64,000 bases of DNA, from the NCBI GenBank assembly GCA_965215605.1, contig OZ244070.1, positions 3,199,424 through 3,263,423 on the forward strand, in the 5' to 3' direction. Made by a program: the position numbers and the translations under genes. The notes beneath the pieces are model-generated. The model ran no database searches, was not told the DNA's origin, and was given only the letters and a program-made list of their open reading frames with translations. The DNA comes from an uncultured Candidatus Binatia bacterium (GTDB lineage: Bacteria > Desulfobacterota > Binatia > UBA9968 > JAJDTQ01). This document shows, one piece after another, positions 9,286 through 29,212 of this stretch. The first letter of the stretch is position 1, and each line of letters starts with the position of its first letter.

Positions 9286-9819
9286 GTGAACATCGTCGAC
9301 GCAGTGTTGGCAGCGGTCCTTTGCGTGTTCGCCGTAAGGGGGTACATCAAGGGGCTGTTCCGGGAGGTATTCGCCTTGCTGGGCCTCGCGGGTGGCTTTA
9401 TCTTGTCCGTACGCTACTACGAACCGGTTTCGCTCTGGATCGATTTCTGGCCCTATTCGCCGCTCCTCCTCAAAGGCTTCGTTTTCGCGATTCTTTTCTT
9501 CCTCGTCTACATCGCCTTCAACTGGGTGGGGTTCAGGCTCCACCGGGCGGCCAACGTCTTTTTCCTCGGCGGGTTCGACCGGTTCGGGGGGGTGCTGGTG
9601 GGAGGCTCCAAGGGCGCGTTGTTTCTGGGGATCGGGCTGTTTTTCCTCGTCTCCCAGTCCTGGGTTCCCAGGGACTTTCAGCAGCAGTTCGGCACCGCGG
9701 CCCTGGTCGCTCCTCTGTTGGGCTTCGGGGCATGGGCGGTGACGAAGGGTCCCGGCTTGGCGTGGCCCGGCGCATCCGGAACGGATTCGATGCCGGGCGA
9801 CCCGCAACGCGGCGCATGA
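9286..9819 (+). CDS. cvpA: CvpA family membrane protein
   Basis: GTG start. 177-aa polytopic membrane protein beginning NIVDAVLAAVLCVFAVRGYIKGLFREV (CvpA-like). The stop overlaps the dnaG ATG. Confidence 0.7.
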   Translation: MNIVDAVLAAVLCVFAVRGYIKGLFREVFALLGLAGGFILSVRYYEPVSLWIDFWPYSPLLLKGFVFAILFFLVYIAFNWVGFRLHRAANVFFLGGFDRFGGVLVGGSKGALFLGIGLFFLVSQSWVPRDFQQQFGTAALVAPLLGFGAWAVTKGPGLAWPGASGTDSMPGDPQRGA

Positions 9820-11536
9820 TCTCGGATCAGACCACTCAAGAGGTTCGCGCACGCGCTTCCATCGTGGAGGTTGTCTCCGATTACGTCACGCTCAAAAAGG
9901 CCGGCCGGAACTATTCCGGGCTGTGCCCCTTCCATTCCGAGAAGACACCCTCCTTCACCGTCAACGAGGAAAAGGGAATCTTCTACTGTTTCGGATGCCA
10001 GGCAGGAGGCGACATCTTCAAGTTCCTGATGTTGTACGACGGGCTCACCTTTCCGGAGTCCATCGAACGGCTGGCGGAACGGTACGGCATCCGCGTGGTG
10101 TCCTCGGGACCCGCCGCCGGCGCGCGCGAGACGCGGCGCGGGGACTATTACCGGTTGAACGAAGAGGCGGCGGAGCTTTACCATGCGCTGCTGCTGGACC
10201 CCTCCCGCGGCGCCCGGGCCAGGGCCTACCTCAACGAGCGCGGCGTGGACGAGGCCCTGTGGCGGCATTTTCGCCTCGGCTTCGCGCCGGGAGGAGATGT
10301 GCTTGCCGGCCGGTTCCGGCACGAAGGCGTGGCGCCGGCGGAGGCGGCCGAGGCGGGGTTGCTGGCGGAGAAGGGGCCGGACTACTACCGGGACCGGTTT
10401 TTCGAGCGCATCGTCTTTCCCATCACCGAGCCGGGCGGCAAGATCACGGGCTTCGGCGGCCGGGTCATCGGCGAGGGCGTACCCAAATACCTCAATTCCC
10501 CGGAAACGCCGCTCTTCCACAAGGGCTCGCAGGTCTATGGCTTGGCGCAGGCCCGGGACGGCATCCGGTCCAATGACCGGGTGGTGGTGGTGGAGGGCTA
10601 CCTGGACGTGCTGGCCCTGGCGCAGTTCGGCGTGACTCACGCGGTGGCCACCCTGGGCACGGCCCTGACCGCCGATCACTTGCGGCTTCTGGGGCGCTAC
10701 ACCCGGAATGTCGTCGCGCTGTTCGACGGCGATACGGCGGGGCGCAACGCCGCCGCCCGCGGCTTCGAGGTCTTTCAGCAGACCGGTCTTTGGGGGCATG
10801 CGGCGTTCCTGCCGGAGGGCGCGGATCCGGACACGTTTGTCCGGACCGAGGGAAAGGCGGCGCTGGAAGGGGTGCTGGAGCGGGCGGTGCCGATCGTGGA
10901 CTTCTACCTGAACTGGCTGCGGGAGAACCACGGGCCCGGCTTCGCCGGCAAGAGCCGGTTGGCGAGCGAGGTGAGCCGGATGCTGGCCAAGGTGACGAAT
11001 CCCCTGGACCGGGACCAGTTGGCGCGGCGGGCGGCGGACCTTCTGGGTATTCGGGAAGAGTCGCTGCGGCGTCAGGCCGCCGGCGCGGCCGCCGGAACCC
11101 CGGCGAGCGGCGGGGATGCTCGCCGCCGCCCGCGCGGCACGGCGGACCGCTGGTCCCTGGGCGAAGACCGCGCGGAGTCCGTGCTGGTGGCGTTGTTGCT
11201 GCGGTTCCCGCTGGTGGTGGAGACGCTGCGCGGCCAGCAGATGGAAAGGCTCGTGACGGAGAAGTGGCGGGAGGTGATCCGGCGGTTGCTCGAGGGCGGG
11301 GAGGTGGCGGTGGGCGTCTTGACCGACGGCCTGCCTCCCGAGCTTGTGTCGGAAATCAGCGCGCTGGTGTTGGAAGGACAGGAGATCGACGAAGAAGAAC
11401 GGGATCGAATGACCGCGGACTGTCTGTTCTTTCTGCAACGACGATACCTGAAGGGGCTCGAGCAGGAACTGCGGAGAGCCATCCGGATCGCGGAAGAGGC
11501 CAGCGATGATGAGGTCAAGAAAGAGAGGATGCGGCA

Positions 11537-13433: not shown

Positions 13434-13510
13434 GGGCCCATAGCTCAGTTGGTTAGAGCCACCGGCTCATAACCGGTAGGTCCCTGGTTCGAGTCCAGGT
13501 GGGCCCACCA
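13434..13510 (+). tRNA. tRNA with CAT anticodon (elongator Met, or Ile2 if lysidine-modified), CCA encoded
   Basis: Cloverleaf read by eye: acceptor GGGCCCA/TGGGCCC, D-arm AGCTCAGTTGGTTAGAGC, anticodon loop CT-CAT-AA, T-arm GGTTCGAGTCC, 3' CCA. Confidence 0.85.
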
Positions 13511-19274: not shown

Positions 19275-20456
19275 ATGCCCGGACGCCAACCCGTCAAACT
19301 CACCAAGCGCGCCGTCGATGCGCTCAGCGTGGAATCGGGCGACACCGTGGTCTGGGACCGGGACCTGCCGGGCTTCGGCATTCGGGTGTATGCGTCGGGC
19401 CGCAAGGTCTGGTGCGTGCAGACCCGGGGACCGGCCGGGGGGCCGAAGCGCTTCGCGCTCGGCCGCTACGGCAATATCACTCCAGACGACGCCCGCCGCA
19501 AGGCGGCGCTCGCCATCGACCGCATCAAGCAGGGATTGGAGCCCGACCCTCCGCCCGCGGCGACCGAGCCCACGGTGGCGGAGCTTGCCGAGCGCTACAT
19601 GGAGGCCCATGTGCGGGTGAACTGCCGGCCCGCGACGGTGGAGGCCTTCGGGCGCATCCTGCGCCTGTACATCGTGCCGGAGCTGGGCCATCTGCAGCTC
19701 TCGGAGGTGGATCGCCCGCAAGTCTCGGAGTTCCATCACAAGCTCCGAAAGAAGCCCTACCAGGCGAATGCGGGGGTGGGGGTGCTGGCGCACATGTTCC
19801 GGCTTGCGGAAGCCTGGGGGATGACGCCGCCGCGGCGCAATCCGTGCCGGTCGGTGCGGCGCTACAGGGAGACGCGCCGCGAGCGGTTCCTGACGCCCGA
19901 GGAGTACCGCGAGTTGGGCCGGGTGCTCGACGAGGCGGAAGCCGACGGCACCGTGTTCCCCCCGGCGATCCCCGCGCTCCGCCTGTTGCTGCTCACGGGC
20001 TGCCGCCGGAACGAGATCCTGACGCTCAGGTGGGACGACGTGGACCACACGGCGGGGGAGCTTCGGCTGAGGGACGGCAAGACGGGATGGCGCAGCGTGC
20101 CGCTCACGCCGGCGGTGGAGGCGGTGCTCGCGGGGATACCGCGGACGAAGGGCAACCCGTGGGTGATCGCGGGGCGGAAGCCCGGAACGCGTCTCACCAA
20201 CCTCGATGCGATCTGGATGAGGCTCCGCAGGCGGGCGGGGCTCGACGACGTGCGGCTCCACGACTGCCGTCATTCGTACGCGTCGCGGGCGCTGGCGCTG
20301 GGCGAGGGGCTTTCGATGATCGGCGCGCTGCTGGGTCACGCGAAGGTGGCGACGACGGCGCGCTATGCGCACTTGGCGCGGGACACGGAGAAGGCTTCGG
20401 CCGCCCGGGTCGGCGGCAGCATAGGCGCGGACATCCTGCCGCCGGGCGCGGTCTGA
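19275..20456 (+). CDS. Tyrosine recombinase/integrase (DUF4102-type N-terminus), copy 1
   Basis: N-terminus LTKRAVDAL...WDRDLPGFGIRVYASGRKVW. Catalytic region LLLLTGCRRNE...HDCRHSYASRAL...LLGHAKVATTARYAHL. Confidence 0.9.
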   Translation: MPGRQPVKLTKRAVDALSVESGDTVVWDRDLPGFGIRVYASGRKVWCVQTRGPAGGPKRFALGRYGNITPDDARRKAALAIDRIKQGLEPDPPPAATEPTVAELAERYMEAHVRVNCRPATVEAFGRILRLYIVPELGHLQLSEVDRPQVSEFHHKLRKKPYQANAGVGVLAHMFRLAEAWGMTPPRRNPCRSVRRYRETRRERFLTPEEYRELGRVLDEAEADGTVFPPAIPALRLLLLTGCRRNEILTLRWDDVDHTAGELRLRDGKTGWRSVPLTPAVEAVLAGIPRTKGNPWVIAGRKPGTRLTNLDAIWMRLRRRAGLDDVRLHDCRHSYASRALALGEGLSMIGALLGHAKVATTARYAHLARDTEKASAARVGGSIGADILPPGAV

Positions 20457-20477
20457 GCCGGAAGGAGGCATCCTCAA

Positions 20478-21692
20478 ATGGCGAAACTCACCACGGCGAC
20501 GATTTCGAAGCGCACGGTGGAAGCGCTGGTGGTGAAGAGGGACACGGTCTACTGGGACTCGGAGCTTTCGGGCTTCGGGGTTCGCGCCTATCCGTCGGGG
20601 AGCAAGTACTACGTGGTGCAGACCCGGGCCAACGGCAAGGCGGCAAAGCGGGTGACGGTGGGCCGGCACGGAATCGTGACGGCGGAGGAGGCGCGCAGGC
20701 GGGCGGCGCTGATCATCGCGCGCATCAAGGCGGGAGAGGAGCCGCTGGCGGAACCCGCGGCGGCCCTGGCCGAGGGTCCCACGGTGGGGGAGCTTGCGCG
20801 CCGGTGGCTCGAAGAGCACGTGGCGGTGCGGTGCAAGCCCAGGACGGTGGAGATGTACACGCTGATCGTCCGCAAGCACCTGCTGCCCGCGCTCGGCAGG
20901 GCACCGGCGCTGGCCGTGGATCACAAGCGGGTGACCGAACTGCACCATTCGATGCGCGGGACGCCGTCGATGGCCAACCGGACGGTGGAGGCGCTGTCGC
21001 GCATCTGGAACTCTGCGGAGGACCGGGGGGAGTTGCCGGAGGCGAGCAACCCGTGCCGGGTCGTGGTGAAGAACCGCGAGCGCGGGCGCGAGCGGTTCCT
21101 GAGCGAGGAGGAGTTCCGCCGGCTGGGGCGGGCGCTGGCGGAGGCGGAGACCGGGAATGGCATGTCGGTGCACGCGGTGGCGGCGATCCGGCTGTTGCTG
21201 CTCACGGGGTTGAGGCGGAACGAGGTTCTGGTGCTCCGCTGGCGGGACGTGGACCTCGATGCGCGCGAGATCAAGCTCGAAGACTCCAAGACCGGAGCGC
21301 GCGTGGCGCCGCTCTCGCCGGAGGCGGCCCGGGTGCTCGCCGTCATCCCGCGCGTGGAGGGGAACCCGCACGTGATCCCCGGGAAGAAGGCGGGCACGCA
21401 CCTGCGCAACCTCAACGACCCCTGGGACCGGATCCGCAAGCGCGCGATGCTGGAGGACGTGCGGCTCCACGACTGCCGCCACTCGTTCGCGTCCAGGGCG
21501 CTGGCGCTCGGCGAAGGGCTGACCATGATCGGGAAGCTCCTGGGTCACACCAAGGTGGAGACCACCGCGCGGTACGCGCATCTGGCGCGGGAGTCGGTGC
21601 GCGACTCCGCCATCCGCGTATCCGACAGCATCGCCGCCGACATCCTGAAGGGATACGGCGGGGACCAAGCTCGGGCCAGGACGGCGACCTGA
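20478..21692 (+). CDS. Tyrosine recombinase/integrase (DUF4102-type N-terminus), copy 2
   Basis: Paralog of the preceding gene (YWDSELSGFGVRAYPSGSKYY...; LLLLTGLRRNE; HDCRHSFASRAL; LLGHTKVETTARYAHL). Confidence 0.9.
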   Translation: MAKLTTATISKRTVEALVVKRDTVYWDSELSGFGVRAYPSGSKYYVVQTRANGKAAKRVTVGRHGIVTAEEARRRAALIIARIKAGEEPLAEPAAALAEGPTVGELARRWLEEHVAVRCKPRTVEMYTLIVRKHLLPALGRAPALAVDHKRVTELHHSMRGTPSMANRTVEALSRIWNSAEDRGELPEASNPCRVVVKNRERGRERFLSEEEFRRLGRALAEAETGNGMSVHAVAAIRLLLLTGLRRNEVLVLRWRDVDLDAREIKLEDSKTGARVAPLSPEAARVLAVIPRVEGNPHVIPGKKAGTHLRNLNDPWDRIRKRAMLEDVRLHDCRHSFASRALALGEGLTMIGKLLGHTKVETTARYAHLARESVRDSAIRVSDSIAADILKGYGGDQARARTAT

Positions 21693-21979: not shown

Positions 21980-22261
21980 ATGAGCACACGACGACGGTTC
22001 AGCGGAGACTTCAAGGCGAAGGTAGCGCTGGAGGCGCTGCGAGGGGACAAGACGATCCAGGAGATTGCGGCGCGGCACAAGGTCCACCCGAACCAGGTGA
22101 GCACGTGGAAGCAGCGTGCGGTGGAGGGGATGAAGGAGGTGTTCTCGAAGGGAGCCGAGGGGGCACGAGGAGACCACGAGGGGGAGGTCCGGGACCTGCA
22201 CGCGAAGATCGGGGAGCTGACGGTGGAGCGGGATTTTTTGGCCAAAGGGCTCAAGTGGTGA
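21980..22261 (+). CDS. IS3-family transposase OrfA (HTH)
   Basis: 93 aa, RRRFSGDFKAKVALEALRGDKTIQEIAARHKVHPNQVSTWKQ, with a leucine-zipper-like C-terminus. Confidence 0.9.
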   Translation: MSTRRRFSGDFKAKVALEALRGDKTIQEIAARHKVHPNQVSTWKQRAVEGMKEVFSKGAEGARGDHEGEVRDLHAKIGELTVERDFLAKGLKW

Positions 22262-23187
22262 GCCGGGAGAAGCGCCGGGGGATGATCGCGCCCGGCCATC
22301 CCAAGCTCAGCTTGAGCCGTCAATGCCATTTGCTTCGAGTGAGTCGATCCTCCGTGTACCACCGGCCCAAGGGCGAGAGCGCGGAGAATCTGGCGTTGAT
22401 GCGCCGGATCGACAAGCTGTTTCTGGAGTACCCCTTCTACGGCAGCCGCTAGATGGTCCGCCATCTGTGGCGGGAGCGAGTCCGAGTGGGTCGTCACCGG
22501 GTGCGGCGTCTGATGCGCCTGATGGGGCTCCAGGCCATCTATCAGGCGCCGCGCACCACCCGACCGCACCCCGAGCACCGGGTCTATCCCTATCTGCTCA
22601 AGGGGGTCGCCATCGAACGGCCCCATCACGCGTGGACCTCCGACATCACCTATGTCCCTGTCCAGAGTGGCTTCCTGTACCTGGTGGCGGTGATGGACTG
22701 GGCCACCCGCCGGGTGCTCTCCTGGAGGCTGTCGAACACCCTCGATGCCCGCTTCTGTGTCGAGGCCCTCTCAGAGGCTCTGGAACGCTACGGCCCTCCC
22801 GAGATCTTCAACACCGACCAGGGCAGCCAGTTCACCAGCCTGGAGTTCACCTCCGTGCTCAAGGACGCCGGCGTCGCCATCTCCATGGACGGCAGGGGCC
22901 GATGCATGGACAACATCTTCATCGAGCGCCTGTGGCGCTCCCTCAAGTACGAGGCCGTCTACCTGCACGAGCTGACCGACGGCTTCGCCGCCCAAAGGGT
23001 CATCGCCCGATGGATGGAGTTCTACAACACCCAAAGGCCTCACACCGCCCTCAATGGCTCGACCCCGGCCGAGGCCTACGACCATGGAATGCTGATGGAG
23101 ATGCAGGCTGAGCCCCTCCGCTCTCCTGCCCCTCCACCCGCTCAACCGGAACGGGAAGACGTGTTAAACAGGACCCTGGCGGCATGA
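22238..23187 (+). pseudogene. IS3-family transposase OrfB (-1 frame), interrupted by an in-frame TAG at 22450-22452
   Basis: Two ORFs in the same frame (…22452 and 22453…) are separated by one TAG. Copy 2 has CAG at the same codon (YGSRQMVRHL). DDE region: WTSDITYVP...NTDQGSQFTS...IERLWRSLKYE. Confidence 0.75.
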
Positions 23188-23420
23188 TCCACTACCCGGA
23201 ATACACCTTATTTTCGCCGCCCACCTGTCCAACGAAGTAGGACCACCTCAATTGAGAAAATCCTGTTTGAGTTCGGCATATGTGGTGTATAGTACGTAAC
23301 GTACTTTCCATCACGCATGACGCTGATAGTGCCCAGTCGCAAGAAACAAAATCCAAGAAGCGCGGGGGCGGCACCGCGACGTTCATCGGGTCGATGTCAC
23401 GCCCCGTCGGAGTGTCTTCC

Positions 23421-25133
23421 ATGTGGCAGGTATCGCTGCCCGGCCTATGTCCAGTGACTGATGCTGTTGCCATCCTTGGCGCTGACGGCATTGAGCACCG
23501 CGGCGCGGTCTATACAAAGCGGGAGGTGGTTGAGTTCATTCTTGATCTTTCCGGCTATACCTCCGACCGTCCGCTTTACAGTTACCGCCTTCTGGAGCCG
23601 TCCTTCGGCGACGGTGATTTCTTGCAGATAGCAATCGAGCGTCTGCTCGAAAGCTGGCACCTAAGCAAGTCATGCGGCAATCCTGTTGCTGCGCTCGCGC
23701 AGTGCATTCGCGGCGTTGAGTTACACCCATCCTCTTTCTGGAGCACGCGCGGCAAGGTCATCAAATGGCTCAAGGACGCAGGCATGACGGTCGAGGGGGC
23801 AGAACGTCTTGCGGATGTATGGCTTATGCAGGGCGATTTCTTGCTCACCGAACTGGCCAACTCCTTTGATTTTGTTGTCGGTAATCCGCCATATGTGCGG
23901 CAGGAACTGATTCCCGATTCCTTGATCGCGGAATACCGCACGCGCTACCGCACAGTGTTCGATCGCGCCGACATCTATATTCCCTTTATCGAACGCTCGC
24001 TGAACCTGCTGAGTGAGGACGGCACCCTCGGCTTTATCTGCGCAGACCGCTGGATGAAGAACCGCTATGGCGGTCCGTTGCGGCAGATGGTGGCTGAAGG
24101 ATATCACCTGAAGGCCTATATCGATATGACCGACACGCCGGCCTTCCATGCCGATGTGATCGCCTACCCGGCGATCACCATCATTACAAAGGGAAACCCT
24201 TGCAGGACGCGGATCGCCCATCGCCCCGCCATTGACAAAATAGTGCTGGATTCCCTTGCCCGGGAAATATTGGCCGACAGTCCGCCCGCACCTGACGGTT
24301 CGGTCAAGGAAATAGCAGATGTTGCCGTCGGTCAGCAGCCCTGGATTCTGGAATCCTCAGATCAGCTCAAGCTCATTCGCCGGTTGGAACACGATTTTCC
24401 GGGCATCGAAGAAGCCGGGTGCAAGGTCGGGATCGGCGTGGCGACCGGTGCGGACAAAGCCTTTATAGGCCCTTTCAACGAACTCGACGTGGAGGAGGAT
24501 CGCAAGCTGCCGCTCGCCATGACCCGCGATATCGACAGCGGTGAAGTCAAATGGCGTGGCCTTGGGGTTGTTAATCCGTTCACCGATGGCGGCGGTCTTG
24601 TCGATCTGAACGACTATCCCCGCCTGAAGAGTTATTTTGAACAGCGACGCGGCCAGATTGCAAAAAGGCACGTCGCACAGAAGGTGCCAGCGAACTGGTA
24701 CCGGACTATCGACCGAATTTATCCTGCGCTTGCCACCGAACCGAAGCTGCTCATCCCGGACATCAAGGGCGAAGCCCATATCGTCTACGAAGACGGGCAC
24801 CTGTATCCGCACCACAATCTCTACTTCATCCTTTCCGACGAGTGGGACTTGAGGGCGCTACGCGCCGTGCTGCGCTCCGGTATCGCCAAGCTCTTCGTTT
24901 CGATCTACGCGACCCGCATGCGAGGCGGTTATCTACGCTTTCAAGCGCAGTATCTCCGGCGCATTCGACTGCCGCGCTGGAAGGACATTTCCGCCGTCCT
25001 CAAAAACGACCTGATCAAGGCCGCTACGTGCAACAATACTGGCGCCTGTAACAGGGCTGTTTCACAGATCTACGGTTTTACACAAGAAGAACGTGCCGCC
25101 ATCGGCGGGAACGGTGAACGGGAGGCCTTTTGA
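23421..25133 (+). CDS. Type II N6-adenine DNA methyltransferase (Eco57I/TaqI-like, NPPY)
   Basis: SAM-binding [12 protein letters not shown], catalytic [14 protein letters not shown] and a TaqI-like C-terminal specificity region. Start uncertain (ORF is open from 23280; ATGs at 23394 and 23421). Confidence 0.8.
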
Positions 25134-25867
25134 CAATAGATCTTGCCGATTACGAACAGAGGGCCCGGCAGGCCATCCGAGCGTTCTGGGGCAACCGCGA
25201 GAAGGCACGCCAGAAGCAGGCCGATTCCGGCAGGGCCGATCAAGGCGAACGCGCCGGCGTCACGGCCGGCAAGAACATGGATGGGTTTATTGCCCTGGTT
25301 ATCGACATCGTTCGGGCCAACGGACTGGATCATGCTGACATTCATCAGCGGCGCCGTGTACTGACATTGCCCGGCTATTTTCGGCCCACGAAGTTGTGGG
25401 ACCTTCTGGTTATCAATGAAGGCCGCCTGGTCGCTGCACTCGAATTTAAGAGCCAGGTGGGCCCATCGTTCGGTAACAATTTCAACAACCGTTCCGAAGA
25501 AGCCATCGGCACTGCGCTTGATCTTTGGACGGCCTACAGGGAAGGGGCATTTGGCGAACAGGCACGTCCTTTCGTCGGCTGGTTGATGTTGCTTGAAGAC
25601 GCGCCAGCATCGCGGACTCCCGTCGGGGATGCGTCTCCCCATTTCCCAGTATTCAAGGAGTTTCAGGGTGCCTCGTATGCCGAGCGCTACAATATTCTCT
25701 GCCGTAAGCTAGTGCGGGAACGGCTTTATACGACGGCATCGGTCCTGACATCGCCGCGGTCGGCTTCGACAGACGGCGACTATTTCGAAATGAGCGATAT
25801 GACTGGGCTGCGCGCATTTGTTACCGAACTTGCCGGACATGTGGCCGCAGAGGCGGCAAGATCATGA
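25130..25867 (+). CDS. Type II restriction endonuclease, XhoI/PaeR7I-like
   Basis: The TTG start overlaps the methylase stop, with a GGGAGG RBS. The segment [28 protein letters not shown] matches my recollection of the RE_XhoI family core. Not verified by search. Confidence 0.6.
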
Positions 25868-25977: not shown

Positions 25978-26979
25978 CTAGCTCATCTCCCACATGCGAC
26001 AACTGACGTGGTTTCGCTTTGAAATCATCGAACCGATGACTTGGGAGTGACGTGGTCGGCAAGACGCCTCTTGTGATGGTGCCTCCGCGTCAAAGGACGA
26101 CTCCACTTGCCGTCGAAGTTCCTCAACCTCGTTTCGCGACAGGTTCCGGACATCCCAAGCGTAAGTCCGTGGGTCCCTGATCATCTTCCAAAGCCGTCCC
26201 AAGCCGCACGGCTCACGGTTCCCCGCGATCTCGACGTCTCCGAGCATTCTGACCACCGCCGCCTCAAAATCCCTCAGTGTGGCATAGCCACTCCCCAACT
26301 CCCTCACGGGCGAATTGGCAAATATCTCATTCAGCGGATGATGTTCAAAAATTTTCGACAAGAGGCTTCGGAGGTCGTCCACCGTGTCACAAGCACTTCC
26401 CCATGCCCGCCCCTCGCGGTACGCGACCTTCAGCGCCCGCAGGGACTGAGCCAGTCTCTGTTCTGCCCGGCAAAGACGGTATTCATGAGACAACCGGCGC
26501 ACTATCTCACGATAGTCAAAGATGATATCCCCTCGATCCGCAAGATAGCAAATTCCGAAATTGCGCAGCGCCACGTACGCCAAATCAGCCACGAGTGGCA
26601 CATCCCGGATCAACGTTTCCGCCGGAAACCGCTCAATCGGTAAAGCCAACTCCGCGCTCTTCAACGCTTCAACTTCGTAAGTTTCCTTCTTGTCCGCGCC
26701 CCGCAGCGTCCCTGCCAGCCACCCATTGTTATCCGCAATTATGATACCTTCAAGTCTCAAATGCTGAACGAACAGACTACCTGCTGAACTCATCTTCGAC
26801 AGTCGCGTCGGTGAATAAGACGCAACTGACCAGCCCGCTGCGCGCCAGCGGCGAACCAGTTGTCGGCGCCTCTGGTCATCATCCCCTACAACCAGTACAT
26901 CTCGGTCGCTCATGACGTCGGTTGATGACCTGGCCGCCGACCCAAAGATACAAACACTTTCAATATTGCCCGGTTTCAT
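25978..26979 (-). CDS. Pol-beta superfamily nucleotidyltransferase with an uncharacterised helical C-terminal domain
   Basis: Minimal NTase motif CIFGSAARSSTDVMSDRDVLVV. The ATG at 26979 overlaps the TGA of the upstream channel gene (ATGA). The longer ORF to 27144 was rejected. Confidence 0.7.
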   Translation of the reverse strand: MKPGNIESVCIFGSAARSSTDVMSDRDVLVVGDDDQRRRQLVRRWRAAGWSVASYSPTRLSKMSSAGSLFVQHLRLEGIIIADNNGWLAGTLRGADKKETYEVEALKSAELALPIERFPAETLIRDVPLVADLAYVALRNFGICYLADRGDIIFDYREIVRRLSHEYRLCRAEQRLAQSLRALKVAYREGRAWGSACDTVDDLRSLLSKIFEHHPLNEIFANSPVRELGSGYATLRDFEAAVVRMLGDVEIAGNREPCGLGRLWKMIRDPRTYAWDVRNLSRNEVEELRRQVESSFDAEAPSQEASCRPRHSQVIGSMISKRNHVSCRMWEMS

Positions 26980-27881
26980 GGCGAGATCTTCCGGAAGAGC
27001 ATAGACGCCAACAGTGCCAATAGAAAAAATCCCAGTAGGCTTTGCACCGAAGCCGCCAAGTGCCCCGTGTGTGTCGTTGGAACGATGTCTCCGTAACCAG
27101 CCGTTGTAAAGGAGATTATTGTATAGTAGAGCGCCTCTACCCACGACGTGATTGGCTCGCCGTCCACTTCTAAGCCAAGGTCGCGACGCAATCGATAATT
27201 GAATATGGTAAATGACGTAATCGTAACCCCAACAGTTCCCAGGAAGTATCTAAGTCGCAATCCGGAGCCGAAGAGCTTCTCCCAGATCCAGCGACGCATA
27301 TAACCGAAACATTTGAGAACGAATCTTCCGGACAACCGCCTTGTTCCCTCCCGTTTCGTCCAATTTCTGATCTCGTATCCGTCTTGAAGTCGCTTCCACC
27401 GCAAGAAAAAAAACTGCGCATCACGCTCGAACTCGATTTGTTCCGTTCCACGGCTGTTACTTAAAAGCATTTGATACAGATGTACTCCAATATTCTGATG
27501 TTTACGGCTGATTAGACATCTACGAAAACTCATCGGATCAATGTAGGTACGACAAATCGACAACTTGTGTGTGTTAGTAAGAATGAAATGACAGTTATGG
27601 AACTCGCAATCTTCGATAGAGGCGCCGATAAAAAGACAACGGTCAAACGTGCAATTCCGAAAACTAAATCCTGATATACATGTCTTCGAAAAACTCACTC
27701 GCTCGAATGTCGTATCGCGGATGCGACACTCTCTCGCGTCACCCGTTCGCTGCATGACGTCCGGCATATATGATGCATGAGTCACATGACGTGAGGTTTT
27801 TAGAAGGCTATGGAAGTCTTCCTGCGACGCTATCAAGGTACTGCCGTCTAGGTGCCAGAATTCGTCGGTCATCGTCATCAA
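26976..27881 (-). CDS. Pentapeptide-repeat domain fused to a 2-TM potassium channel pore
   Basis: Pentapeptide-like run FERVSFSKTCISGFSFRNCTFDRCLFIGASIEDCEFHNCHF. TM helix, pore helix plus selectivity filter YYTIISFTTAGYGDIVP, then a second TM helix. Confidence 0.8.
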   Translation of the reverse strand: MMTMTDEFWHLDGSTLIASQEDFHSLLKTSRHVTHASYMPDVMQRTGDARECRIRDTTFERVSFSKTCISGFSFRNCTFDRCLFIGASIEDCEFHNCHFILTNTHKLSICRTYIDPMSFRRCLISRKHQNIGVHLYQMLLSNSRGTEQIEFERDAQFFFLRWKRLQDGYEIRNWTKREGTRRLSGRFVLKCFGYMRRWIWEKLFGSGLRLRYFLGTVGVTITSFTIFNYRLRRDLGLEVDGEPITSWVEALYYTIISFTTAGYGDIVPTTHTGHLAASVQSLLGFFLLALLASMLFRKISP

Positions 27882-27916: not shown

Positions 27917-28787
27917 TTATGTACTGAAAAAACCACTGGTTCCACCGCCTGTGATGGATGGCGCTTCAATTGTCGGGTGCTCGTGGGCGATCGCGGCGGA
28001 CGCAGAATACATCGTGGACGGTCCTTTGAAAACGGTCCCCAGTCGTCCTGGGTTCCTCCTGTCTGCCTTCGCCGTTTTGGGCATCACTACCGCATCCACA
28101 GGAATGTTGACCGTCCTGCCAGTCCCTTCCTGCTCGACTGGCACGTTGAGACGGAACGAATACGTCCCCGGCTCCAACTCGTCATATTTCGTGCCCTCGC
28201 CTGCGGATAAGTTTTCGTACTCCAGAACTGTCAACCATTCGCTGATCGCCGTGAGCTGACGCTATTCCTGTCGGTTACGGATGAGCGGATTGGCGACGGC
28301 CCCGCATAGGCGATCGGCCACGATGGTCGCGGCCCGGTACAGCTCCGGTTCGGACGGATCGTCTCCGCGCTCCAACCAGACGAAGACATCCGGGTCGGCC
28401 ATCCGCTCGATGATCTGCCCAATCTTCTTGAGGTCTCTGTCCAGTTCCTGCTGGGACATTCGCGGCGGGAGCCTGTTCTCCTTATCCATCGCCTTGACCA
28501 GGTTCCCGGAGACGCCAGCAAGACCGATCAGCCGGTCCATGGCCAGAGGCGGACAAGTGGACATCCGCAGTGACGGCAACACCGAGGGCTTCGCCTTCAG
28601 GAGCTCCACCCCCCACATCTGTCAGGTTCTTCGTCGCTATAAGGGTCGCCTCGACATCCATTGTGGTCTGCACCCGCGTCGTCCGGTAGGCCTCCGGCGC
28701 AAATCGCATGAACCAGTCGTTGTACATGTCCACCGAATCTGCGATGTCCTGTTTCCACCGGTCGGGTTTGTCCCTGTTGACTGCCAT
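27917..28787 (-). pseudogene. XamI-like type II restriction endonuclease, decayed (frameshift plus in-frame stop)
   Basis: Three collinear ORF pieces. The N-terminus MAVNRDKPDRWKQDIADSVDMYNDWFMRFAPEAY...VLPSLRMSTCPPLAMDRLIGLAGVS resembles the RE_XamI family as I recall it. Frameshift at the C6 run 28609-28614. TAG at 28262-28264 is in frame with the 27917-28234 ORF. Confidence 0.55.
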
Positions 28788-29212
28788 CACTTGTTTTTCT
28801 TTTCCTGATCTTCCCGCTTTGCCAGCCAGCAAGGCTTACACATCTCCTGAAAAAGCCGGTCAGGCACACATAACGGTCGCCGCTTCCTTCTCGAAAGCGA
28901 CCACCATCTGCTTCGGCAGCCTGATCCCGGCAACCTGCGTCGGGCCTCGTGCCACCATCCGCCTACTCTCTCCTTGGCTTACTGCTAGGTTCATTGTTGA
29001 CGACGACTCGACACCCGTCAACAGCGCTCACTTGAGTTTACCGAAATTAGCATGCTGCTGCACTCCTCGGGAACTCTCGCGTGACGAACTTGAAGTGATC
29101 GCCGACGAGCCTGTCCTCGCATCCATTGCCACCCGTGAATGACTCGTCGGAAGGACCGGACGGCCGCGACCTAGACGGCGACCCGGTCTCCAGCCACACA
29201 TCTACTTGGGAT

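Follow-up and report, generated by a model that had tools for sequence, protein, structure and literature searches.

The subject of this report is a pair of overlapping genes in a 64,000-nucleotide stretch of contig OZ244070.1 (the window), from the genome of an uncultured Candidatus Binatia bacterium. Both genes lie on the minus strand; the first encodes a pentapeptide-repeat membrane channel and the second a nucleotidyltransferase (NTase). Together they probably belong, as a divergent member, to the Hailong family of abortive-infection systems against phage, and they form part of the cargo of an integrated mobile element, at whose edge they lie. The halA-like effector gene occupies 26976..27881 (minus strand) as an open reading frame (ORF) of 301 amino acids (aa) counted from a TTG at 27881, and the halB-like nucleotidyltransferase gene follows at 25978..26979 (minus strand) as an ORF of 333 aa from an ATG. 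At their junction (26976..26979, minus strand), where the sequence reads ...tcg cca tga, the NTase ATG at 26979-26977 and the channel TGA at 26978-26976 form an ATGA stop/start overlap of 4 bp. The ATG at 27878, giving a protein of 300 aa, is probably the true start of the channel rather than the TTG at 27881, because the homologues are 300 aa long and begin with MTxxDEFW, aligning from residue 1. Source gene call P0098 for the channel is 259 aa long and starts 42 residues late relative to these homologues; judged by this alignment, the source annotation of the channel start is mis-called and too short. A longer ORF of 388 aa from a GTG was ruled out as the NTase gene, since the NTase homologues begin at the same Met as the 333-aa ORF. 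Scanning for promoters and terminators around the operon revealed nothing meaningful.

The channel protein begins with a cytosolic pentapeptide beta-helix, continues through a helical linker and ends in a pore with two transmembrane helices (2-TM). The beta-helix, spanning approximately residues 53-126 (27504..27725, minus strand), is apparent from both Pfam and the predicted structure: the profiles Pentapeptide_4, Pentapeptide_3 and Pentapeptide match residues 56-126, and the AlphaFold2 (AF2) model displays short strands with a period of about 5 over residues 58-110. The pore module (26985..27254, minus strand), delimited by DSSP of the AF2 model, consists of TM1 (residues 210-230), a pore helix (247-259), the filter and TM2 (271-299), directly after which the polypeptide ends. 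Its K+ selectivity filter, TTAGYGD (residues 259-265; 27087..27107, minus strand), can be read from the sequence, and in 41 homologues T259, T260, G262, Y263, G264 and D265 either do not vary or are kept at a level of at least 90%, with the clade consensus TT[LVA]G[YF]GD. The features of the K+-channel superfamily are all present, namely the conserved filter, the succession of TM1, pore helix and TM2 in the model, and a Pfam Ion_trans_2 match over residues 225-299 that scores 49.1 bits where 22.5 would suffice (E=5e-13). The channel was found to have neither a domain for physiological gating (RCK, KTN or other) nor a known cyclic-nucleotide sensor domain.

The second protein carries the NTase motif GSAARSSTDVMSDRDVLVV at residues 13-31, within which the active-site residues G13-S14...D25-x-D27 (26899..26943, minus strand) are invariant in 37 homologues. 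The Pfam profile NTP_transf_2 barely reaches its threshold (22 bits, with 21 required). Beyond the catalytic core lies a conserved helical extension at approximately residues 185-295 (26095..26427, minus strand), which is absent from canonical HalB and in which R188, R226, Y232, R236, E239, P270, Y273 and W275 are invariant. The C-terminal tail (residues 296-333; 25981..26094, minus strand) is not conserved, is apparently disordered and is modelled with low confidence, the predicted local distance difference test (pLDDT) score falling below 50 at residues 305-307 and 310-333. Thus, the basic description in the original prediction, in which two ORFs joined by an ATGA overlap encode a pentapeptide run with a 2-TM pore and a TTAGYGD filter in one protein and a minimal DNA polymerase beta (Pol-beta) motif (GS...DxD) in the other, agrees with the ORF list, the junction sequence and the Pfam matches.

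Hailong is reportedly an anti-phage system described by Tan et al. in Nature in 2025 (643:794), made up of the ion-channel effector HalA and the nucleotidyltransferase HalB. The suggestion that no described system has the architecture seen in the window thus did not hold, as the combination of a pentapeptide-repeat channel and an NTase had already been described in 2025. Solved structures are available for HalA (PDB entry 9nyi, a complex with oligodeoxyadenylate) and for HalB (9dbh, 9dbi and 9dbj), and both window proteins lead to them. For the channel, the AF2 monomer model was based on an alignment of 41 homologues (pLDDT 90.4), and a Foldseek search of the PDB returned HalA (9nyi_A) first, with E=9.3e-10, 340 aligned columns and a TM-score of 0.52; this fold match covers the full length, and the next match follows at 3e-4. 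The best specific NCBIfam match of the channel is likewise HalA (E=1.5e-8), the pentapeptide region aligning to positions 70-148 of the HalA model. A PDB sequence search with the channel was dominated by K+ channels, and HalA reached just E=0.22 when the N-terminal 230 aa served as the query. For the NTase, the AF2 model was based on an alignment of 37 homologues (pLDDT 81.8), and Foldseek ranks 1-13 were all HalB, with E about 1e-7 (9dbj, 8e-8) and target TM-scores of 0.63-0.67, followed by MntA at E=2e-2. Each of the two Hailong matches therefore leads the next by about five orders of magnitude. HalB is also the best NCBIfam match of the NTase (E=4.6e-17), and in the PDB its entries 9dbh and 9dbj were found with a single sequence (phmmer, E about 1e-6) and with the family profile (E=2e-10). 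On the evidence of these sequence and model comparisons, both window proteins are remote homologues of their Hailong counterparts.

The same searches bear on a scheme in the manner of cyclic oligonucleotide-based anti-phage signalling systems (CBASS), in which infection would activate the NTase and its signal would open the channel. The layout of an NTase with a membrane effector would suit such a scheme, and the GS...DxD motif is common to all Pol-beta NTases. However, the similarity to SMODS or cGAS/DncV-like nucleotidyltransferases (CD-NTases) that had been proposed for the second protein was not found: Pfam, PADLOC and NCBIfam gave no SMODS/CD-NTase match, and no cGAS/DncV-like structure appeared in the top 50 Foldseek matches, whose first thirteen places go to HalB. 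The cytosolic part of the effector is, moreover, a HalA-type pentapeptide crown and no known cyclic-nucleotide sensor, and the nucleotide made in the homologous Hailong system acts as an inhibitor (PMC13434031). This scheme is highly improbable, and membership of CBASS was rejected for want of CD-NTase similarity in sequence or structure. Two further families of NTase-based systems were considered and rejected. MNT-HEPN (type VII toxin-antitoxin) was set aside with a MntA score of 14.9 bits, where 60 is required, and no HEPN partner gene; the Rx4-6H HEPN motif is also not conserved in the helical domain of the NTase, where the position paired with R139 across five residues is H or Y. AbiE, which couples the AbiEii DUF1814 NTase to AbiEi, was excluded because no such Pfam or PADLOC match was obtained and the partner is a channel.

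A comparison of functional residues, covering the family alignment, the solved HalB and two canonical HalBs (Sulfitobacter and Rhizobium), reinforces the relationship to HalB. The NTase family and the HalBs have G13/S14, D25/D27, H73, E77, D83, Y101, R139 and R181 in common. D25/D27 correspond to HalB D21/D23, the residues mutated in PDB entry 9dbi, and R181 (26437..26439, minus strand), which is invariant, aligns to the first R of GLRRSDED, that is, to HalB R164, mutated in 9dbj. A candidate for the third catalytic carboxylate is offered by E77...D83 on strand 79-83 (26731..26751, minus strand), invariant in the family and kept in the solved and the two canonical HalBs. An incomplete triad had been named beforehand as an observation that would count against the reading; instead, a complete acidic triad appears plausible, since D25/D27 and E77/D83 are conserved with HalB. 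Lastly, the invariant Y101 (26677..26679, minus strand) aligns to Tyr92 of the solved HalB and to a Tyr in the Sulfitobacter and Rhizobium proteins. Tyr92 is the sole Tyr of the aligned HalB core that is conserved in all lineages, the other core Tyr not being kept, and Y101 may accordingly be regarded as a candidate priming tyrosine on the strength of the alignment.

The two genes travel together. About 100 homologues of each protein were collected at 90% clustering, often from contigs common to both. A survey with one genome per GTDB species yielded 25 loci with an NTase relative, one of them cut by a contig end; in all 24 loci that could be tested, a channel gene of the same orientation immediately precedes that of the NTase. 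The 4-bp overlap recurs in 13 of these 24 and also in L026-L033 and L038-L041. The same gene order was found in 11 of 11 further distinct genome or metagenome contexts, two of which had been picked from channel matches apparently without an NTase partner. An all-versus-all comparison of neighbouring ORFs identified no third recurring gene, as at most three of 27 loci share a neighbour (insertion sequence or amidase). The pair is thus a self-contained two-gene module conserved across phyla, in keeping with the earlier claim that an NTase and a membrane channel effector form a two-gene system. An exhaustive hidden Markov model search with the long NTase retrieved 223 clusters at 50% identity (E<=1e-30), nearly all of about 290-330 aa and matching over their full length. 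The hosts include Rhodobacterales, Hyphomicrobiales, several gammaproteobacterial orders, Dehalococcoidia and Bacteroidia, the Alpha- and Gammaproteobacteria among them coming from marine and soil habitats. In public annotation, the relatives appear as "ion channel", "pentapeptide repeat-containing protein" or "hypothetical". Searches of mobile replicons gave little: tblastn of the window NTase against plasmids and a search of phages with the solved HalB sequence found no match, and a scan of viral contigs produced one weak partial match.

Some loci also display a pattern of disruption. The channel ORF is truncated or frameshifted beside an intact NTase in four genomes (L001, L006, L011 and L020), a pattern that fits a toxic effector; these disruptions could represent decay of such an effector or errors of long-read assembly. 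In one locus (L012), it is the NTase gene that is truncated.

This distribution, together with the fold matches, also speaks to the simplest alternative, that an ordinary K+ channel of ion homeostasis happens to stand beside an unrelated NTase, for example of the resistance or tRNA type. The above-threshold Ion_trans_2 match and the canonical filter would be expected of such a channel, and two of the contexts described below are metabolic or polysaccharide loci. Yet the synteny is strict in every locus, whether examined from the side of one gene or the other, the distribution across phyla is patchy, the GC content is foreign, each protein leads independently to its own Hailong counterpart, and the channel lacks RCK, KTN or any other domain for physiological gating. 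A housekeeping role is barely credible and was rejected, since it cannot be reconciled with such strict synteny, with the foreign GC or with so patchy a distribution.

The mechanism reported for Hailong provides a framework for the divergent pair in the window. HalB makes poly-dA constitutively and without a template, primed on its own tyrosine, and short oligodeoxyadenylates hold the channel shut by binding to the cytosolic crown of the HalA tetramer where its subunits meet (PMC13434031). When a phage 5'-3' exonuclease degrades the oligonucleotide, HalA opens and the membrane depolarises, Na+ influx being reported for the canonical channel (PMC13434031). Other reviews give the same mechanism. 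We infer by analogy that the window pair follows the same guard logic, because both proteins are homologous to those of Hailong and the probed residues are conserved. By homology (PMC13434031), the NTase would constitutively make a protein-primed oligodeoxyadenylate; this single-stranded DNA oligonucleotide would bind between the subunits of the cytosolic crown of a tetrameric channel and keep the pore shut. Phage DNA exonucleases would destroy the oligonucleotide during infection, the channel would open, and the resulting collapse of ion gradients would stop the growth of the infected cell before phage release. Since the canonical TTxGYGD filter is retained, the open channel is predicted to be K+-selective, so that K+ would be lost and the membrane clamped near the K+ equilibrium potential, unlike the Na+ influx of HalA.

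From the perspective of the original prediction, an abortive-infection-type module is still the best reading of the pair. The proposal that the NTase senses or signals and the channel then fires probably has the sign reversed, as the product of the Hailong NTase is inhibitory and no CD-NTase/SMODS similarity is present. The further proposal that the channel collapses the K+ gradient is plausible insofar as the K+ filter is conserved in the clade, with the reservation that canonical HalA has no such filter.

How far the clade stands from canonical Hailong can be gauged with a comparison pair from a Sulfitobacter pontiacus plasmid, which scores 266.6 against the HalA cut-off of 250 and 184.7 against the HalB cut-off of 190 in the NCBIfam equivalog models (NF051894 for HalA and NF051895 for HalB). 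Against this pair, hhalign gave the families of the window proteins 97.6% for HalB (155 columns) and 95.7% for HalA (pore region). All 18 other clade members scanned with NCBIfam have the same HalA and HalB best specific matches, and all of the relatives scanned also fall below the equivalog cut-offs. At the aligned filter position, both the solved HalA and the Sulfitobacter HalA read FLFGYTN, and canonical HalA has no Pfam channel match even at E<=1. Within the clade, the Dehalococcoidia relatives (L016, L017, L018 and L022) and L013 have degenerate pores, such as TIPAGVGD and THVGINIF. The degenerate pores of the Dehalococcoidia parallel canonical HalA and suggest, from the sequences compared, that selectivity was lost repeatedly.

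HalB-type enzymes are also found with other partners. For example, an NTase encoded after a WYL-domain protein on the Rhizobium leguminosarum plasmid NZ_CP121640.1 (L034 5050-6681) scores 220.8 bits, above the HalB cut-off, and in Klebsiella ColE1-type plasmids of 5.4 kb (L035 1321-3663) a DUF1883 gene precedes that of a HalB-like NTase (139 bits), with a WYL gene nearby. Because HalB-family NTases are paired with WYL and DUF1883 partners, the enzyme may serve several effector types. In another instance, a defence system from P4-satellite hotspots (Nucleic Acids Research, 2026) is described as joining a pentapeptide and IRK K+-channel protein to an NTase-/HEPN-like one; it conferred phage protection on E. 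coli, and its authors classed it as Hailong (PMC13586616). A search of E. coli genomes at the DNA level with the enterobacterial relative from Pantoea (L037), aimed at the counterpart of this P4-satellite system, gave no match. The present clade is not recognised by PADLOC, by NCBIfam/PGAP or, according to PMC13586616, by DefenseFinder. The Hailong family thus extends well past what annotation pipelines name.

In the window, the pair lies in DNA of distinct composition. The GC content is 0.48-0.59 over 23-29 kb, compared with 0.65-0.73 on either flank, and its lowest value, 0.481, coincides with the channel gene. A second low-GC tract is present at window positions 61001-63000 (0.55-0.57 against about 0.65-0.70) and may be another acquired islet. 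On one side of the pair stands an intact XhoI-like type II restriction-modification (R-M) system (23280..25867, plus strand), which is context and outside the module. It consists of an Eco57I/TaqI-type methyltransferase (MTase) at 23280-25133 (plus strand; Pfam Eco57I/TaqI_C/N6_Mtase; PADLOC MTase_II, E=2e-250) and a XhoI-like restriction endonuclease (REase) at 25130-25867 (plus strand; Pfam XhoI, E=4e-100; PADLOC REase_II, E=1e-116). The other side holds the remnants of a XamI-like endonuclease (27917..28832, minus strand; Pfam RE_XamI and PADLOC REase_II; also context only). This gene is, from its sequence, a pseudogene, because it is split into three ORFs that match successive, different parts of the RE_XamI and REase_II profiles. 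The halA-like promoter probably sits within this remnant, as the halA-like start is just about 35 bp downstream.

Farther out are an IS3-family element with its customary two ORFs (21980-23187, plus strand) and two tandem tyrosine integrases of 393 and 404 aa (19275-21692, plus strand), both with Arm-DNA-bind_3 and Phage_integrase domains. The sole tRNA gene in the window, for tRNA-Met (13434-13510), is about 6 kb from the integrase/IS3 stretch. From 30109 onward, genes for phosphoadenosine-phosphosulfate (PAPS) reductase and ParB follow, which are typical of integrative elements. The GC profile and the Pfam and PADLOC annotation thus bear out the earlier placement of the pair in a lower-GC tract flanked by an intact XhoI-like R-M system, a decayed XamI-like nuclease, an IS3 element and genes resembling those of integrative and conjugative elements (ICEs). 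In this setting, the pair brings to three the defence elements in a small R-M islet of the Binatia genome, at the edge of a mobile element.

The surroundings of relatives were judged from per-locus Pfam tables. Of the 11 tabulated contexts, nine, including the window with its R-M system, insertion sequence (IS) and integrases, are listed as carrying mobile-element or defence genes, and two are not. Defence-related neighbours include DUF2357, DUF559/MTES_1575 and FRG genes (L026); an HNH gene, two C5-MTases and HATPase_c_3 together with an IS (L032); and an OLD-type TOPRIM ATPase and SIR2 with HerA, again with an IS (L033). ICE genes and SIR2 accompany the Pantoea pair (L037), and an integrase, a GmrSD/HNH gene and an EcoRI-type MTase are found at L038, whose metabolic insertion site is the same as that of L040. 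IS and recombinase genes surround L039, and an integrase, an IS and a PAPS reductase surround L041. The exceptions are an ordinary metabolic locus (L029) and an ordinary polysaccharide locus (L031), both free of mobile or defence genes. The surroundings of the pair are thus mostly rich in mobile-element or defence genes, and the view that it is usually carried in such DNA is upheld by the individual contexts. A pooled PADLOC scan of 118 neighbour ORFs gave aggregate counts dominated by three C5-MTases. At L040, a gene of the metallo-beta-lactamase (MBL) fold with a Pfam Anti-Pycsar_Apyc1 match is located 1.5 kb downstream of the pair homologue (9427-10308, plus strand); given its LigAB aromatic-degradation context, it is probably a coincidental MBL hydrolase.

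Such contexts would also be compatible with a toxin-antitoxin-like addiction module that stabilises the element or island and has no significant anti-phage function in the host. Formally, the pair comprises a toxin (the channel) and an antitoxin made by an enzyme; integrases, an IS and ICE genes adjoin it, relatives often occur in IS- or ICE-rich DNA, and the pair is almost absent from viral contigs. Nevertheless, canonical Hailong and the K+-channel-type relative (PMC13586616) protect against phage, and the neighbours are often bona fide defence genes, which makes addiction as the main role quite unlikely; the roles of addiction and defence are, in addition, not mutually exclusive.

Several observations weigh against classing the pair with Hailong. 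The window proteins score only 34.2 bits against 250 for HalA and 62.3 against 190 for HalB, and their identity to the solved structures is about 15-22%; by these profile scores, the pair is not an equivalog of HalA and HalB. PADLOC has no model that matches the channel and returns only weak, motif-level matches for the NTase. The window NTase is longer by about 100 conserved residues than canonical HalB (211-229 aa), and the pore differs in its most functionally telling segment, TTxGYGD as opposed to FLFGYTN in HalA. HalB homology alone is insufficient to fix the mechanism, as HalB-family NTases also occur with non-channel partners, and two of the nine contexts annotated in full, L029 and L031, are plain metabolic and polysaccharide loci.

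A rival reading is that a Hailong-like chassis has been put to a different chemistry, in which the NTase would make another product (a homopolymer of another kind, RNA or a protein modification) or its extension would sense a phage factor directly, and the channel would be gated differently. The extension of about 100 aa with its invariant R, Y, E and W residues, absent from HalB, would find a use in such a system, as would the K+ filter kept in the clade and absent from HalA; the very low identity, the sub-threshold scores and the wiring of HalB relatives to WYL and DUF1883 partners point in the same direction. Set against them are the conservation of all the probed HalB residues (D21/D23 and R164) and of the shared Tyr, the full-length fold matches of both proteins, and a gene order and overlap as in the Hailong operon, and we consider a change of chemistry unlikely. 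A related and doubtful, though arguable, idea is that the clade of at least 223 clusters is a mechanistically distinct sister of Hailong, with a K+-selective efflux channel whose crown is gated by the product of the longer HalB-like enzyme. In such a sister, the NTase extension may add a function, such as sensing of a phage factor, synthesis of a different polymer or control of its length. A divergent Hailong system remains the probable identity of the pair. A presumably DNA-gated chassis that occurs with an intact or a degenerate K+ filter amounts to a natural experiment, one that bears on the importance of ion selectivity in abortive infection and on the recruitment of a K+ channel as an immune effector.

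Among known systems, 2-TM K+ channels of the KcsA/KirBac type resemble the window channel in their pore helix, TTxGYGD filter and two TM helices, as the PDB matches indicate, but the window channel differs in its N-terminal pentapeptide beta-helix regulator, the lack of a C-terminal domain and the coupling of its gene to that of an NTase. MntA of the MntA/HepT system is likewise a minimal Pol-beta NTase with GS...DxD and is the next-best structural neighbour (6m6w and 7bxo); its partner is a HEPN RNase, whereas that of the window NTase is a channel. CBASS with membrane effectors is alike in joining an NTase to a membrane-disrupting effector with an abortive-infection outcome, and unlike in that the window pair has neither the CD-NTase fold nor a cyclic-nucleotide sensor and is expected to be regulated with the opposite sign. 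The closest counterpart is Hailong. Both are two-gene operons in which the effector gene precedes that of the NTase; both effectors are built in the HalA manner, a helical linker connecting the cytosolic pentapeptide beta-helix to a C-terminal 2-TM pore; and both NTases are of the HalB-type minimal Pol-beta kind with a helical domain, the window enzyme conserving the counterparts of HalB D21/D23, R164 and Tyr92. Hailong also provides the best structural and profile match for both window proteins and shares their association with mobile and defence DNA. Within this family, the description of the P4-satellite system (PMC13586616) fits the window clade better than it fits canonical HalA, the homology being presumed from the domain description alone.

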